Shown here: positions 39 to 27,652 of the stretch, piece after piece | Layout: every line of letters starts with the position of its first letter | Position numbering within the stretch: position 1 is the first letter of the stretch | Virus record (IMG/VR): IMGVR_UViG_3300012667_000473 | Span: 1 to 35,629 of that record | Origin: a virus | Taxonomy: Duplodnaviria; Caudoviricetes | Length of the DNA: 35,629 nucleotides | Reading direction: 5' to 3' (one strand) | Position numbers and translations under genes: made by a program | Notes under the pieces: generated by a model | Seen by the model: only the letters and a program-made list of their open reading frames with translations | What the model was told of the DNA's origin: nothing | Database searches by the model: none

Positions 39-671
39 ATGCCTGACCAGCAATGGCCTGCCGATACTGTCACGCGCCGAAAGGTGTCGGATCTTGTCCC
101 ATATGCTCGAAACAGCCGCACGCACAGCGAGGCGCAGGTCGCGCAGATCGCAGCGTCGATCAAGGAGTGGGGATTCACCACACCGATCCTGATCGACATC
201 GACGGCCAGGTGATCGCCGGTCACGGGCGACTGCTTGCGGCTCAGAAGCTGGGCCTGGATCAGGTGCCGACAATGACTGCAGTCTGCTGGTCTGAAGCGC
301 AGAAAAAAGCCTATGTCATCGCCGACAACAAGCTGGCGCTAAACGCTGGCTGGGATGACGAAATGTTGCGAATCGAAATCAGCGATCTCAGAGAGTTTGA
401 TTTTGACCTGACGCTGACCGGCTTTGAAATCACAGAAATTGACGCAATTTCTTTCGACGATGATGCCGAAGCACCGATGCCTGCGCTGGCTGATGGAGAC
501 AGAAAACCATTCCAGCAGATGACGTTCACCTTGCACGACGATCAGGTCGAAGAAGTGAAGGCCGCGATGGAAAAGGCAAAGGCGATGGGTGCGTTCATCG
601 ACACCGGAAATGAAAACGGAAACGGCAACGCGCTCGCCAGAATCTGTGAGATGTTCAATGGCAACTGCTAA
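39..671 (+). CDS. ParB/Srx N-terminal-like domain protein of the phage packaging locus
   Basis: Motifs LVPYARNSRTHS, SIKEWGFTTPILID, IAGHGRLLAA and YVIADNKLALNAGWD are typical of phage ParB-N proteins found next to DNA-modification genes and terminase. Confidence 0.9.
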   Translation: MPDQQWPADTVTRRKVSDLVPYARNSRTHSEAQVAQIAASIKEWGFTTPILIDIDGQVIAGHGRLLAAQKLGLDQVPTMTAVCWSEAQKKAYVIADNKLALNAGWDDEMLRIEISDLREFDFDLTLTGFEITEIDAISFDDDAEAPMPALADGDRKPFQQMTFTLHDDQVEEVKAAMEKAKAMGAFIDTGNENGNGNALARICEMFNGNC

Positions 672-1467
672 AGAAATCGTCGTCAAGCCGATCACGGCAC
701 AGGCCGCGACCAAGTTGGTGCGGGCAATTCATTACAGCGGGAAGGTGGCTGCGAACTCGCAGCTTCACTTCGGGGTCTTTCTGCATGGCAAGTTAGAGGG
801 GGCAATGCAGTTTGGCCCGTCTCTGGACAAGAGAAAGACGCAGGCACTGGTCGATGGCACAGGCTGGAACGGATTTCTTGAACTGAACCGCATGGCATTC
901 TCTGATGTCTTGCCGAAGAACAGCGAGAGCCGGGCGCTCGGGGTGGCGATGCGGCTGATCAAAAAGCACTATCCGCACATTGAGTGGGTTGTCAGCTTTT
1001 CAGATGGGACGCAGTGCGGCGATGGCACGATCTATCGGGCAAGTGGGTTTGTCCTGACAGGCATCAAGAAAAACACCAGCATCTGGGAAGCGCCGGATGG
1101 CAGCGTTTCGACAGACTTGAGCTTGCGTCTCGGATCGCAGGCAAAAGCCCCAAAGATTGTGAACGCGACTTCAATGACGAAAGGCCCAGCAATTTCTCAG
1201 ACTGGCGCGGCGTCGATGCGCCCCTTCCGGGATGCTGGGTATAAACCAAAAGAAGGGTTCCAGCTTCGGTATGTTTACTTCCTAAATCCAGATGCGCGCC
1301 AACGGCTGACGGTCCAGATCCTGCCATTCAGCAAGATTGACGAAATGGGGGCTGGAATGTACAAGGGCGAAGCGCGTGTGAAGCAGGCAACCACCGAGGT
1401 CCACTCGGCAGGGCGATGGGGCGGAACCAATCCACACGCTCCACCATCAGATGGGCAGCCGTTGTGA
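658..1467 (+). CDS. mom: Mom-family (GNAT fold) DNA adenine hypermodification enzyme
   Basis: Start taken at ATG 658 (MATAKEIVV), overlapping the ParB stop. Motifs IHYSG, LELNRM, NSESRAL and VVSFSDGTQCGDGTIYRASGF match the Mom-like pattern. Family-level call only. Confidence 0.8.
   Translation: MATAKEIVVKPITAQAATKLVRAIHYSGKVAANSQLHFGVFLHGKLEGAMQFGPSLDKRKTQALVDGTGWNGFLELNRMAFSDVLPKNSESRALGVAMRLIKKHYPHIEWVVSFSDGTQCGDGTIYRASGFVLTGIKKNTSIWEAPDGSVSTDLSLRLGSQAKAPKIVNATSMTKGPAISQTGAASMRPFRDAGYKPKEGFQLRYVYFLNPDARQRLTVQILPFSKIDEMGAGMYKGEARVKQATTEVHSAGRWGGTNPHAPPSDGQPL
1374..1443 (+). tRNA. Non-canonical tRNA-Gly(TCC)-like element, D-arm reduced, inside the mom-like ORF 3' end
   Basis: Acceptor stem GCGTGTG 1374-1380 pairs with CACACGC 1433-1439 (7/7), then discriminator T1440 and CCA 1441-1443. 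Anticodon hairpin CCGA-GGTCCAC-TCGG has TCC at 1400-1402. T-like arm is GATGG-GGCGGAA-CC(A)ATC. Confidence 0.7.
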
Positions 1468-1485
1468 ATCGGCTTGCGTTGTTTT
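1455..1485 (+). terminator. Probable intrinsic terminator between the convergent mom-like gene and the small reverse gene
   Basis: GC-AGCCG/CGGCT-(T)-GC stem followed by GTTGTTTT. Confidence 0.5.
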
Positions 1486-1694
1486 CAGGCGTTGATGATG
1501 TGGGCGCTGGATCCAGATTCGGTCACGGCATAAATCATGGTGCGACCATCGCCCTGCTCGGCGGCGTATTCTTTTGCTTCAGCAAAGGTCGAGAAGTCCT
1601 TGCGGATGCGCTGTGCGCCGCGACCGCGAACTGCACTAAAGCTGGCAGCGGCCATCAGGCAATTCGTTTCGTGGGTGGTCTGTTGCGTTTTCAT
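1485..1694 (-). CDS. Small hypothetical protein (moron-like, antisense to the packaging operon)
   Basis: 69-aa ORF filling the gap before terS, with RBS AAGGA and a sigma70-like promoter upstream. Confidence 0.75.
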   Translation of the reverse strand: MKTQQTTHETNCLMAAASFSAVRGRGAQRIRKDFSTFAEAKEYAAEQGDGRTMIYAVTESGSSAHIINA

Positions 1695-1698
1695 TTTG

Positions 1699-1750
1699 CG
1701 TCCTTGTTTGCTAGTGCCTTGTTTCTACAGGACAAGTTGCTTGAGGCAAT
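1699..1750 (-). promoter_or_regulatory. Early-type promoter and leader for the 1485-1694 gene
   Basis: Minus strand reads TTGCCT-16 nt-TAGAAA, then ACTAGCAAACAAGGACG, a 17-mer identical to 27985-28001. Confidence 0.55.
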
Positions 1751-1756
1751 AGTAAA

Positions 1757-2251
1757 ATGACGCGCGGCAGAAAACCATCACCGTCCGCGATCAAGATCGT
1801 GACGGGGCGCGACCGCGCTGACCGAATGCCGAAGAGCGAGCCATTGCCGGTGATGGTGATGGAGGCCGCGCCAGAGCCGCCGGAACATCTGGACGCCTAT
1901 GCGCTGGAAGAGTGGCATCACATCTGCGGTGCGCTGTTTCGTTGCGGCGTGCTGACCGAGATCGACGGGCGCGGGCTGGCGATGTATTGCCAAGCCTATG
2001 GCAGATGGCGGAAAGCCGAGGAGGCCATCCAGCAGATGGCGAAGGCCAACCCGGCCAGCGGCGGGCTGATCATCAAGACCAGCAACGGCAACATCATTCA
2101 GAATCCGATGGTCGGCACGGCCAACACCGCTATGCGGGATGCCATGAAATTCGCGTCGGAATATGGCCTGACGCCATCAAGCCGAGTGCGCCTCGGCGTC
2201 GAAGCGGATCGAGCCAACGAGAAAGATCCAACGGCGGTATATTTCACATGA
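1757..2251 (+). CDS. terS: Terminase small subunit (P27 family)
   Basis: MTRGRKPSP start, PEPPEHLD..ALEEW, LAMYCQAY, QNPMV and EYGLTPSSRVRL motifs; directly upstream of terL. Confidence 0.93.
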   Translation: MTRGRKPSPSAIKIVTGRDRADRMPKSEPLPVMVMEAAPEPPEHLDAYALEEWHHICGALFRCGVLTEIDGRGLAMYCQAYGRWRKAEEAIQQMAKANPASGGLIIKTSNGNIIQNPMVGTANTAMRDAMKFASEYGLTPSSRVRLGVEADRANEKDPTAVYFT

Positions 2252-3972
2252 CCCACATCGTGCACGAATACGCGCGCCGCGCGCTGGCCGGGGAGATCAG
2301 CGTCGGTCCGCACGTTAGAAATCAGTGCCGCCGACACCTCGCCGACCTCGATCGCGACGACATCTATTTTGACGAAGCCGCAGCGGATCGTGCCATCGGT
2401 TTTTTTGAGAACGTGCTGAAACTGAGCGAGGGACAATTCGAGGGCATCCCGTTCAAGTTGCACATCAGCCAGGCGTTCATCGTCGGCTCGATCTTCGGCT
2501 GGAAAAAACCAGATGGGCTGCGGCGCTATCGGCGTGCCTACATTGAGATGGGCAAGGGCAACGGGAAAAGCCCACTGGCTGGCGGGATCGGTCTTTATGG
2601 GCTGATGGCTGATGGCGAGGCGGGCGCGCAAATTTATGCGGCGGCTGCGAAGAAGGATCAGGCAATGATCCTGTTCCAGGACGCTGTGAAGATGGTGCGG
2701 CAATCACCGGCGCTGGAAAAGCGGATCACGCCATCGGGCGTCAACCCGGTTTGGAACCTGGCATATATCAGCGCCGGGGCATTCTTCCGCCCGATCAGCC
2801 GGGACAGCGGCAAGAGCGGATCTGGGCCGCGTCCGCATTTCGCGCTGTGCGATGAGGTCCATGAGCATCCTGATCGCGGCATAATGGAAATGCTGGAGCG
2901 CGGTTTTAAATTCCGCAACCAGCCGCTGCTGTTGATGATCACCAACAGCGGATCCGACCGAAACAGTGTTTGCTGGGAGGAGCACGAACACGCCTGCGCG
3001 GTGGCCGCTGGCGACATGAAGGATGACACGACATTCCCATATGTCTGCGCCCTGGACGAGGGCGACGATCCTCTGACGGAACCAGGCTGCTGGTCAAAGG
3101 TCAACCCGCTGTTGGGCGTGATCCTGAAAGAGAGCTACCTGCAAGGCGTTGTGGATCAGGCGCGCGCGATTCCGGGCAAACTGAACAGCATCCTGCGCCT
3201 GCATTTCTGCGTCTGGACCGACGCGGATGCAGCCTGGATCAGCCGGTCAGCATGGGAAGCCTGCGAAGATCCGGCCATGTCGATCGATGATTTCGATGGG
3301 CAGCCGTGTTATATCGGCCTGGACTTGTCGGCGACCAAAGACATCACCGGCGTGGCCTATGTGTTTCCTGATGGCGAAACAGAGGACGGCAGGCCCAAGT
3401 TTGCGCTGTGCGCGCGTGGATACACCCCTGGCGATACGGTCAGCCAGCGCGAGCTGACCGACAAAGCGCCATATTCTGTCTGGGTGCGCGATGGCTGGCT
3501 GATCGCGCCGCCGGGCAAGGTCATCCGATACGACCAGATCGCATATGACCTGATCGAGGCAGCGCAGCGGTTCGATGTGCAGGCGGTGTCCTATGACCGC
3601 TGGCTGATCAAGACGTTTGAGAATGCGCTGGATGAGATCGGCGGCGTGCTGCCTCTGATCGAGCACCCGCAAGGCACCAATCAGCGCAAGGATACGCCGC
3701 TCTGGATGCCGCAGAGCGTCAACCAGTTCGAGGATCTGATCTTGGAGCGCAGGCTGCGGATCGAGGTCAACCCGGCGCTGCGGTCTGCCGTGGCGTCGGC
3801 CTGCTTTTGGACATCGCCAGCCGGGCTGCGCCGATTCGAAAAGCAGCGCGCCACAGGCAGGATCGACATGGCGCTGGCGGCCACGATGGCGATCGGCGCG
3901 GCGATGGGCGGCGAGGCATCCAAGCCGCCATCCTCGCCCTGGGATGACCCTGCGTTTACACTGAGCGCCTAG
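2248..3972 (+). CDS. terL: Terminase large subunit (HK97/cos type)
   Basis: Start at ATG 2248 (ATGA overlap with terS). Walker A MGKGNGKS, Walker B LCDEVHEH, nuclease GLDLS and RID motifs. Confidence 0.96.
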   Translation: MTHIVHEYARRALAGEISVGPHVRNQCRRHLADLDRDDIYFDEAAADRAIGFFENVLKLSEGQFEGIPFKLHISQAFIVGSIFGWKKPDGLRRYRRAYIEMGKGNGKSPLAGGIGLYGLMADGEAGAQIYAAAAKKDQAMILFQDAVKMVRQSPALEKRITPSGVNPVWNLAYISAGAFFRPISRDSGKSGSGPRPHFALCDEVHEHPDRGIMEMLERGFKFRNQPLLLMITNSGSDRNSVCWEEHEHACAVAAGDMKDDTTFPYVCALDEGDDPLTEPGCWSKVNPLLGVILKESYLQGVVDQARAIPGKLNSILRLHFCVWTDADAAWISRSAWEACEDPAMSIDDFDGQPCYIGLDLSATKDITGVAYVFPDGETEDGRPKFALCARGYTPGDTVSQRELTDKAPYSVWVRDGWLIAPPGKVIRYDQIAYDLIEAAQRFDVQAVSYDRWLIKTFENALDEIGGVLPLIEHPQGTNQRKDTPLWMPQSVNQFEDLILERRLRIEVNPALRSAVASACFWTSPAGLRRFEKQRATGRIDMALAATMAIGAAMGGEASKPPSSPWDDPAFTLSA

Positions 3973-26219: not shown

Positions 26220-26394
26220 TCTTGTTTTCCATGTGATCAAGTTCGTTCTGGGCGGCATCCATATATGCGCCCAGGATGCCGATCTCTTCGCCGACCCACG
26301 CCGGGCGAACGCTGTCGCCATAGGTGAAGCGCAGGTCTTCGATCTGCTTGCGTTTCTGCTCGATGTATTCGCGCAGGTATTCTTGTCTGGTCAT
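26209..26394 (-). CDS. Hypothetical protein
   Basis: 61-aa helical ORF coupled to the MTase stop. Confidence 0.65.
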   Translation of the reverse strand: MTRQEYLREYIEQKRKQIEDLRFTYGDSVRPAWVGEEIGILGAYMDAAQNELDHMENKNAD

Positions 26395-27467
26395 TCGATC
26401 ACTCCACAGAAGGTTTGGATGAAGGCCGCCGCTGCTTGCGGGACGATGGCGTTGCCGTAACCGCGCAGTCGCACCACTCGGGCGGGTAACCCATGAGCCA
26501 GCGGGAATGTGCCGGGTTCAACTGGCCGCCACTTTCCATCCCGGCAGAAGAGCCAGTCAGCATCTGCCCATCCGCCGTGAAGCGCGCTGGGCCGTTCGAC
26601 ACGCTCCATGCCGCCATTGATGGCAGATCGTCCAGGCGGCCTTTCCGCTCCATCTCTGCTTCGCATCCCGCCAGTGTCCTTGCGCCCTTCGATCCGTCTG
26701 ATGCTCTCGGCGTCGGCCAGCCCGCCATTGCCGCCCGTTGCGGCAGCGGGATGCCCGTGTCCTGCGGCCTGATTGTCCCGTTGCCACGGTTCGCATCCAC
26801 CGCTGTCGGCGTCGACCAGCCCGCCGTCCAAACCACCCGGCCCAGCAGCGCATTCACCGGCACGTTTAGGCACTCCTGGCCGTCTTTGTGATCCCGTGTC
26901 GTCGGCGTCGGCCAGCCTGACCGCGCCGAAGAATGTGCGCTGGCGGATGTGGAATGCGCCGACGCCCGCAGCCGGAATATCAGACGTCCCGCAGGCGTAA
27001 TGTGCGGCTTCCAACCGCCCGAATAGGTCATCGATCCACGCCCACTCAGGCTGTCCTGAAGCGCCGTGTTCAGCGCGTTTTGCAGGCTTTCCGAAGACAG
27101 CCGCGCTGGCGACTTGCTCTCCAAAGAGGATGGGTGGCCGTCCAGCGGCAACGAGAGTTGCAAAGTGGGGTGCGAGGTGTCGTTCATCGTCCTGACCTTT
27201 CTGTTGTCCTGCGGTGCTGAACGGTTGGCACGGCGGCGATCCCGTCCAGAACGGCTGATCGTCAGGCCATCCGGCCAGACGCAGAGCGTATGACCAGCCG
27301 CCGATCCCAGCGAAGAAATGGCACTGCGTGAAGCCGCGCAGATCGTCGGCGGTCACATCAAGGATCGACCGCTCATCGACCACACCATCCGCGATGAGGC
27401 CGCGCCTGATCAGCTCGCGCAGCCATGCCGCTGCGCCAGCGTCATATTCGTTGTAATATGCGGGCAT
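26391..27467 (-). CDS. C5-cytosine DNA methyltransferase, alpha polypeptide
   Basis: Start at ATG 27467. Motif I FFAGIGG, IV GSPPCQPFS, VI variant FGEQV, VIII HIRQRTF and X LRGYGNAIVP; motif IX is absent from this frame. Confidence 0.9.
   Translation of the reverse strand: MPAYYNEYDAGAAAWLRELIRRGLIADGVVDERSILDVTADDLRGFTQCHFFAGIGGWSYALRLAGWPDDQPFWTGSPPCQPFSTAGQQKGQDDERHLAPHFATLVAAGRPPILFGEQVASAAVFGKPAKRAEHGASGQPEWAWIDDLFGRLEAAHYACGTSDIPAAGVGAFHIRQRTFFGAVRLADADDTGSQRRPGVPKRAGECAAGPGGLDGGLVDADSGGCEPWQRDNQAAGHGHPAAATGGNGGLADAESIRRIEGRKDTGGMRSRDGAERPPGRSAINGGMERVERPSALHGGWADADWLFCRDGKWRPVEPGTFPLAHGLPARVVRLRGYGNAIVPQAAAAFIQTFCGVIE
26399..27187 (-). CDS. Overprinted MTase beta polypeptide (TRD-like repeats plus motif IX)
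   Basis: 262-aa alternative-frame ORF nested in the MTase, with GWPTPTTRD, GWSTPTAVD, GWPTPRASD and LNPAHSRWLMGYPPEW. Confidence 0.78.
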   Translation of the reverse strand: MNDTSHPTLQLSLPLDGHPSSLESKSPARLSSESLQNALNTALQDSLSGRGSMTYSGGWKPHITPAGRLIFRLRASAHSTSASAHSSARSGWPTPTTRDHKDGQECLNVPVNALLGRVVWTAGWSTPTAVDANRGNGTIRPQDTGIPLPQRAAMAGWPTPRASDGSKGARTLAGCEAEMERKGRLDDLPSMAAWSVSNGPARFTADGQMLTGSSAGMESGGQLNPAHSRWLMGYPPEWCDCAVTATPSSRKQRRPSSKPSVE

Positions 27468-27652
27468 CACGCATCCTCCACGGTGATCGTTGCGTTGCGC
27501 CCAGCGTCGTCGCATTCGACCCGCCAGACGCAGAGGCGCTCAAGGTTGGTGAAGTGCGCAACCTGATCATGCGCGTTGTCTGCCGCCCGTCTGGACGCGC
27601 AGCGGCGCGATGTCCCGCCGCCCGGATAAACATTGATGTAGCTGATCATCAC
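27467..27652 (-). CDS. Hypothetical protein
   Basis: Coupled ORF with YINVYP...RLCVWRVE. Confidence 0.65.
   Translation of the reverse strand: MMISYINVYPGGGTSRRCASRRAADNAHDQVAHFTNLERLCVWRVECDDAGRNATITVEDA

Follow-up and report, generated by a model that had tools for sequence, protein, structure and literature searches.

The Mom protein of phage Mu moves glycine from Gly-tRNAGly to the N6 of adenine, forming 6-NcmdA; it accepts all three E. coli isoacceptors and rejects Gly-tRNAAla, and the authors of that work speculate that it reads mainly the acceptor end (PMC13219725). This is the report of Mom using Gly-tRNA-Gly that had been mentioned in a sequence-only reading of the DNA described here, and it is real. 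A second system in which tRNAGly is reserved for an enzyme is found in Staphylococcus aureus and Staphylococcus epidermidis, where the tRNAGly species NP1-NP3 are the donors for FmhB, FemA and FemB (PMC7826273).

The stretch of DNA analyzed here (the window) comprises positions 1 to 35,629, 35,629 nucleotides in all, of IMG/VR record IMGVR_UViG_3300012667_000473 (Duplodnaviria; Caudoviricetes). A ParB/mom/RNA cassette heads the packaging module of this 35.6-kb tailed phage record. The features of the locus, with one more distant gene, are:

39..671, plus strand: ParB-like gene (phrog_620, E 1e-52), directly upstream of mom and overlapping its start
658..1467, plus strand: predicted Mom-family GNAT DNA-adenine aminoacyltransferase gene (PF25680, phrog_1384, PDB 8BV8)
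1374..1443, plus strand: D-armless tRNA-Gly-like RNA, 70 nt (sequence, covariance model R1, family covariation)
1457..1484, plus strand: weak hairpin of terminator type with a T-rich tail, separating mom/RNA from the convergent small gene
1485-1694, minus strand: convergent gene of small size and unknown function (phrog_21360), separating the RNA from terS
1757-2251, plus strand: terminase small subunit gene, part of the packaging genes at 1757..3972
about 2248-3972, plus strand: terminase large subunit gene
26391-27515, minus strand: separate DNA methyltransferase gene (phrog_363)

The ParB_N match of the 39..671 product falls just below cut-off (E 1e-5). The last ~31 codons of the mom ORF (658-1467) overlap the RNA and extend beyond it. 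An insert similar to the 1485-1694 gene is also located 3' of the RNA in three relatives (L001, L003 and L017). The terminator-like hairpin of the sequence-only reading is present at 1457-1474, although it is weak (z -0.45) and, with six terminator-like sites in 2.3 kb vs 2.2 expected, not statistically distinct. A conserved terminator 3' of the RNA was rejected as a feature of the family, being weak here and absent from the relatives' flanks that were examined.

The window Mom scored 180.9 bits against PF25680 (cut-off 27.1; E 3e-53) and matched phrog_1384 and PDB 8BV8 (E 9e-27). Mu residues H58, Y59, R111, S124, D149 and Y159, of which R111 and S124 are catalytic, correspond to H25, Y26, R78, S91, D116 and Y126 of the window protein, and the equivalents of these residues are invariant in 80/80 relatives. 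The Mu-essential R151 is unmatched, the aligned residue being T118 in the window and T, A, C or S in the 80 relatives, where a local register shift is possible.

The RNA within the 3' end of mom has the following parts:

1374-1380 / 1433-1439, plus strand: acceptor stem GCGTGTG/CACACGC (sequence)
1440, plus strand: discriminator U73, followed at 1441-1443, plus strand, by an encoded CCA (sequence)
1381-1392, plus strand: 12-nt strand replacing the D arm, with an unpaired A in addition (mutual information, A2 pair counts)
1394..1408, plus strand: anticodon hairpin CCGAG-GTCCA-CTCGG (folding, A1 pair counts, mutual information)
1400-1402, plus strand: anticodon TCC, with G33 in place of U33 and an extra 32-38 pair
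1415..1432, plus strand: T arm GATGG-GGCGGAA-CCA[A]TC, with loop GGCGGAA and, between positions 63 and 64, an A (1430) that bulges out

The acceptor stem, U73, CCA, TCC and bulged-A T arm are all where the sequence-only reading had placed them, and its estimate of about 13 nt at the D-arm site agrees with the 12 nt plus unpaired A. Its description of the anticodon hairpin holds for the TCC but not for a 7-nt loop, as G32-C38 covaries as a pair and leaves a 5-nt loop. The GlyRS identity set that it had named (G1-C72, C2-G71, G3-C70, U73, C35 and C36) is complete in the window RNA and is fixed across the family. Relative to a canonical tRNA, the window RNA has no D arm, has A8 and G33, pairs position 32 with 38 and is without TTC; its T loop has GGC at the TTC position, vs the TGC or TGT common in the family. 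Three further contacts given by the family model fit the window copy by inspection: G1386 with C1422 (G19-C56-like), G1387/C1388 with G1413/C1414, and C1392 with G1411.

Folded alone, the window RNA is not significant (MFE z = -0.87; 40/200 shuffles fold equally well). Its MFE is a competing fold in which the CCA end pairs with 1417-1423, and the tRNA-like model lies 4.5 kcal/mol above it in this copy (-20.6 vs -25.1); an MFE without the acceptor stem is found in 3/57 unique copies, including that of the window. ARAGORN made no call on the window RNA, a miss that had been anticipated. The Rfam 15 covariance models gave 0 matches in window 1200-1700 at E up to 10, and none for the D-armless RNAs of L001, L020 and L202. 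A canonical tRNA-Gly (four arms, U8, U33, TTC and an unbulged 5-bp T stem, detected by ARAGORN or Rfam) was found at 0/55 loci. With the window copy kept out of the training set, a covariance model (R1) built from 32 other sequences, all gapless 69-nt copies, gave that copy 62.1 bits (E 2e-12), against 18.9 for the second-best site anywhere in the 35.6 kb.

Covariation was assessed in two alignments. A1 contains 43/47 short copies, the four omitted being two mini-D forms and two near-duplicates; 99.1% of its cells pair (slid controls, 33-45%) and 8/13 pairs have two-sided changes, with compensatory changes flanking the T-stem bulge on both sides. Under the full model, 97.9% of the cells of A2 (32 rows) pair and 16/22 pairs have two-sided changes (0/500 shuffles), where the rows were picked by length and CC position, some of them from a motif that fixes the T arm, and the shuffle statistics ignore kinship of the rows. 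Slid controls over A1 and A2 together were 30-45% paired. The anticodon CC is invariant in 43/43 A1 rows, which were chosen regardless of CC, G49-C65 is invariant in the family, and pair 4 is mostly U-A (31/43 A1 rows). Covarying acceptor stems with fixed GCG/CGC-T-CCA and an NCC anticodon, proposed beforehand as the pattern to look for, were found.

Mutual information, calculated between every two columns for 34 clustered rows, puts the helices at the top and reveals further contacts that were not imposed beforehand. Position d6 of the strand varies with position 56 (G-C 26, A-U 6, U-A 1), the equivalent of G19-C56; d7/d8 covary with the end of the variable region, in a swap that may be one event dividing two subtypes; d12 covaries with the start of that region, and position 54 with position 58 (U-A or G-G). 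This covariation points to a rebuilt elbow with a G19-C56-like pair. The comparative sequence evidence shows window 1374-1443 to be a real, covarying tRNA-Gly-like RNA, far beyond chance.

The anatomy of the family was surveyed in 199 unique copies, 106 short and 93 long. Among the short forms, NCC is at the pairing-defined loop centre in 99/106 (ACC in 74, TCC in 22, CCC in 3); within these 99, U33 is present in 20, C37 in 33 and a 32-38 pair in 97. A8 is found in 95/106 short forms, and their T loops have TGC in 45, TGT in 10 and TTC in 4 of 106. In the long members a D arm persists, sometimes along with TTC; 18/57 long-form loci are called by ARAGORN, six of them as tRNA-Gly, and the RF00005 cut-off is passed by 4/14 loci tested, with the bulged A as an insertion. 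Judging from these near-canonical long members, the RNA family is of tRNA ancestry, and its forms are suggestive of a graded series from near-canonical tRNA to D-armless RNA. In A3, an alignment of the 76-nt forms, the acceptor and T stems are 99-100% paired, the D stem 54.7% and the anticodon stem 72.5%; the D and anticodon stem counts are not used as support because equal-length rows differ in register. The pairing-only anticodon parser mis-registered 8/57 protein-selected copies and 28/93 long forms.

Co-evolution of RNA subtype and Mom was considered and rejected, as the subtypes are scattered over an unrooted FastTree of 141 Moms (49 changes for five states plus "none"), and no order of events is claimed from this tree. 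D arm vs none takes 20 changes on it, both counts being made without a shuffled-label control.

A Mom relative is present in 469 viral stretches, the best 80 of which were taken for a protein-first survey; 79 of these were testable since one stretch (L009) ends before the RNA site. A detector requiring GCG..CGC-T with >=6/7 pairs at <=60 nt from the MYxG codon, and asking nothing of T arm or anticodon, fired in 79/79 testable relatives and in the window, vs 236/9334 control windows (2.5%). All 57 unique copies obtained in this way form a 5/5 T stem only with an A bulged between 63 and 64, and reach at most 3/5 pairs in the canonical register without the bulge. The TCCA end is present in 50/57; 47 copies measure 67-71 nt, and the other 10, which have a D arm, 75-77 nt. 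The RNA starts 14-51 nt 3' of the last conserved Mom motif, and the covariance model hits 77/80 loci, 17 of these being in its training set.

In a sample of 22 of the 71 phage records with a Mom match, the RNA is absent within about 1 kb of mom at 21/22 annotated-phage loci, Mu included. The sole carrier is the cultured Psychrobacter phage vB_PmaS_Y8A (OQ059336), which has two unannotated copies in tandem between the mom stop and terS (L202:2162-2229 and 2234-2302). The RNA lies wholly after the mom stop in this phage, L068 and L074. In Synechococcus phage S-SSM7, mom (L341:586-900) directly follows four annotated tRNAs (Ile, Thr, Arg and Leu); no match to the RNA model was obtained at this locus.

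A reciprocal search used a 3'-half motif that is blind to mom. It returned 120 viral loci from the 5/64 parts scanned, for an estimated total of about 1700, with >=3 of these loci being contigs also in the protein-first set. The acceptor stem, unspecified by the motif, is present in 121/122 viral matches. Of 64 viral matches with full flanks, 62 have a same-strand mom, one is an element without mom and one is not an element, a tight linkage to mom (62/63 full-flank elements). Mom is upstream of the RNA in 52 of the linked cases and downstream in 10, and 86/86 Mom ORFs flagged by HMM pass the PF25680 cut-off. Bacterial and archaeal genomes gave 120 motif matches, 70 with full flanks. Mom is near 0/29 of those without an acceptor stem; of the 41 with a stem, 25 have a same-strand mom, two an opposite-strand mom and 14 none. 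By inspection, four of these 14 are chance folds and 10 are genuine-looking, so that mom within 1.5 kb is missing for about 10 genuine-looking genome copies. Only 1/9 orphan-copy genomes has an above-cut-off mom elsewhere, and that mom carries its own RNA copy. The linkage of RNA and mom is strong in viruses, but not absolute. The earlier term "dedicated" donor has to be qualified in view of the mom-less copies, of Mu, which has no such RNA, and of the acceptance of any isoacceptor by Mu Mom.

The placement of the RNA also varies. It is upstream of mom in 10 viral and seven genome full-flank cases, antisense and convergent to mom in L249 and L278, and in tandem copies in L020, L022, L118, L175 and L202, placements that are as expected of a trans-acting gene. 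At L095 the RNA is opposite to, and convergent with, a weakly Mom-like GNAT gene.

Several copies lie outside the usual setting. Orphan chromosomal copies among housekeeping genes were observed at L215, L216, L224, L237, L247, L258 and L277, and 3' half copies only at L275, L323 and L326; the hosts of these orphans and halves are Acidobacteriota, Bacillota, Chloroflexota and delta-proteobacterial MAGs. That the orphan-copy lineages harbour a resident host tRNA was rejected, as the RNA was sporadic (2/61 and 2/41 genomes, incomplete MAGs, with 83 or 124 candidates scored per genome). In the Acidobacteriota genome G005, a D-arm form (L350:7515-7589, minus strand) is located in a polysaccharide cluster 0.85 kb upstream of a FemAB-family gene (L350:5448-6662, minus strand). 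A general partnership with FemAB-type transferases was likewise rejected, the RNA being found in the flanks, some of them short, of 0/14 FemAB relatives. L240 (minus strand, around 1494-2609) has ParB, a C5 DNA methylase in the mom slot, a decaying RNA copy and terS, an arrangement that looks like a relic left once mom was replaced. Similar ParB/terminase slots with other cargo were seen in L253, L115 and L157.

The peptide that overlaps the RNA is unconstrained and a by-product. The invariant 3' block of the RNA is read in all three phases (31, 16 and 2 copies) and is untranslated in eight (n=57), as would be expected if, as had been suggested, the protein tail results from reading through the RNA. 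Three peptide signatures or short tails cover 110 of the best 120 protein homologues. The mom stop is before or inside the RNA in 8/57 copies, from which it follows that Mom needs few residues past MYxG. It is 3' of the RNA in the other 49/57, and release of the RNA would thus leave a stop-less mom mRNA; each such transcript could then be used as message or as precursor of the RNA, not both. The RNA also moves as a module between divergent Moms: the window and L001 are 88% identical in Mom and 59% in the RNA, and the window and L017 are 67% and 94% identical, respectively.

We consider it probable (about 0.72) that the RNA is a ribosome-excluded, phage-supplied glycyl donor for the N6-adenine DNA modification by Mom. 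A carrier that can be charged but does not decode would lie beside the only enzyme of this phage known to require Gly-tRNA. tRNA precursors are processed by RNase P and 3' nucleases, and the RNA would be cut from the mom transcript by host 5' and 3' nucleases, its CCA being already encoded. Host GlyRS would then charge it with glycine, an expectation based on the contacts of GlyRS with base pairs 1 to 4 (including G4-C69), U73 and C35/C36 and on its charging of minihelices (PMC9908026; the identity set of tRNAGly is also given in PMC9976931). The positions contacted by GlyRS are the fixed positions of the RNA family, pair 4 excepted. The charged RNA would escape EF-Tu and the ribosome, as the bulge lies inside the pairs that set EF-Tu affinity, 49-65, 50-64 and 51-63 (PMC3239215). 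U73, which shields unbound Gly-tRNA from DTD (PMC6097841), would do the same for the free Gly-RNA until Mom transfers the glycine to adenine N6 of the phage DNA. The gain would be a supply of donor that is not in competition with late protein synthesis. Since Mu is without the RNA and its Mom uses any of the three E. coli isoacceptors, the RNA more probably serves to boost the reaction than as a cofactor that Mom cannot do without.

The evidence for the donor reading is the fold, the identity set, the lost decoding features, the bulge, the linkage to mom and the unconstrained peptide. Several observations count against it: the window MFE buries the CCA end; the mom stop would be lost on release in 49/57 copies; 21/22 annotated-phage mom loci are without the RNA, and mom-less genome copies exist; GlyRS contacts G4-C69, where the family has mostly U-A; the T-stem bulge at 51a of tRNASec and selC* tRNACys is dispensable and is compatible with translation (PMC5389517); and the Mu-essential R151 is T in the window Mom clade.

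Other explanations were weighed against the donor reading. One is that the RNA is a tRNA mimic acting in cis, which RNase P and 3' nucleases would cleave and so regulate the mom message: the cut would take away the stop, hold down a potentially toxic enzyme and detach mom from the terminase genes. Its position before the stop in 49/57 copies, so soon after the last Mom motif, and the retained elbow-like contacts are consistent with such a role, but we consider it unlikely: C35/C36 are invariant, and copies also occur wholly after the stop, upstream, on the opposite strand and in duplicate. The processing enzymes are not known to depend on C35/C36. Cis cleavage could nevertheless arise as a side effect of whatever the RNA mainly does. 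We find it more doubtful still that the RNA is a decoy or ligand, charged or not, that inhibits or activates Mom or titrates GlyRS, glycine T-boxes or anticodon nucleases. While a tRNAGly mimic would suit the donor site of Mom, and mom linkage would be equally expected, the full GlyRS identity set and encoded CCA (TCCA in 50/57) are the needs of a chargeable donor, and the swapping of RNAs between divergent Moms argues against a co-evolved inhibitor pair.

The near-canonical members, with their ARAGORN (18/57 long-form loci) and RF00005 (4/14 loci) calls, would fit a phage tRNA-Gly that is competent in translation, supplements or substitutes for host tRNAGly and is drawn on by Mom as any isoacceptor would be. 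This is very improbable for the window form, which has no D arm, has G33, A8 and a paired 32-38 and is without TTC, and in general because ACC dominates the short forms, the bulge is present in 57/57 protein-selected copies and viral copies almost never lie away from mom. Scarcely any weight is given to chance, a coding constraint on the Mom C-terminus, or a decayed tRNA or attachment-site remnant. Such readings might draw on the lack of significance of the single sequence and on the few 3' halves and orphans in bacterial genomes; they are, however, largely refuted by covariation, each helix, the T stem of the window copy among them, having compensatory changes on both sides, and they sit poorly with the three reading frames, the non-coding and tandem copies, and neighbours that are ParB and terminase, no integrase being found among the 25 window ORFs scanned.

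Extending the donor reading to the family as a whole, we think it fairly probable that this is a widespread, unannotated, tRNA-Gly-derived, ribosome-proof glycine carrier that first gained the bulge, which blocks EF-Tu, then lost TTC, and then the D arm with a rebuilt elbow, is released from within mom and acts as a co-substrate of DNA hypermodification. Only recently did the donor of Mom become known, and it was assumed to be host tRNA that Mom scavenges; a large Mom clade appears instead to carry its own. The RNA is missed by tRNA finders; for one strict motif, the estimate is about 1700 viral stretches. If true, the bacterial world would have a D-armless aminoacyl carrier, which would form with its enzyme a two-part system of DNA protection, by which phages can uncouple DNA protection from translation. 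It would also account for the spurious C-terminal tails of many annotated Mom proteins, offer a natural cloverleaf-to-D-armless series for testing the needs of GlyRS, EF-Tu and RNase P, and provide a potentially orthogonal glycyl carrier for enzymatic DNA labelling. The two intergenic copies of the cultured Psychrobacter phage vB_PmaS_Y8A make the family directly testable.

Searches of open-access papers turned up no description of a mom-linked tRNA-like RNA, although supplements and subscription papers may bear on this; the main text of PMC13219725 has no mention of tRNA-like or phage-encoded tRNA, and PMC7824862 refers to Mom and to tRNA-like RNA, but in unrelated settings. The closest enzyme is Mu Mom (PF25680; PDB 8BV8), which is of the same family and shares R111, S124, H58, Y59, D149 and Y159 with the window Mom, R151 being unmatched. 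A glycylated tRNA is the donor in Mu (PMC13219725), and the same kind of donor is proposed here. Mu, however, uses host tRNAGly and has no RNA near mom, whereas the window has the order ParB-mom-RNA-terminase.

Irregular tRNAs offer structural comparisons. The mitochondrial tRNASer(GCU) mentioned in PMC9976931 likewise has its D arm replaced by a short strand and keeps the tRNA shape, but it decodes on specialised ribosomes, whereas the phage RNA has glycine identity and no sign of decoding. The 8/4 tRNASec, the selC* tRNACys with A51a and the allo-tRNAs are bacterial and phage tRNAs that have an irregular acceptor-T branch and are missed by annotation, as is the phage RNA; 8/4 tRNASec and selC* have a 5'-strand bulge and can translate, whereas the phage RNA has a 7/5 branch with a 3'-strand bulge (PMC5389517, which has no mention of tRNAGly).

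The closest RNAs are the staphylococcal NP tRNAGly (PMC7826273), which are set aside for a GNAT-fold transferase, the principle that we propose here. They share with the phage RNA a TGC/TGT T loop, a 6-bp anticodon stem with a 5-nt loop, and an altered EF-Tu-binding T stem, although the alterations differ: A49-U65, U50-A64 and A51-U63 in the NP species vs G-C-rich pairs with a bulged A in the phage RNA. The NP tRNAs are chromosomal, confined to staphylococci and full cloverleafs with a UCC anticodon, whereas the phage RNA is phage-borne, mostly D-armless, mostly ACC and overlaps an ORF; the former feed peptidoglycan and the latter would feed DNA. That a tRNAGly can be reserved for a GNAT-fold transferase is already known from staphylococci; what is new is the RNA family, its D-armless architecture, its location inside the gene of the enzyme and its likely role in DNA modification.
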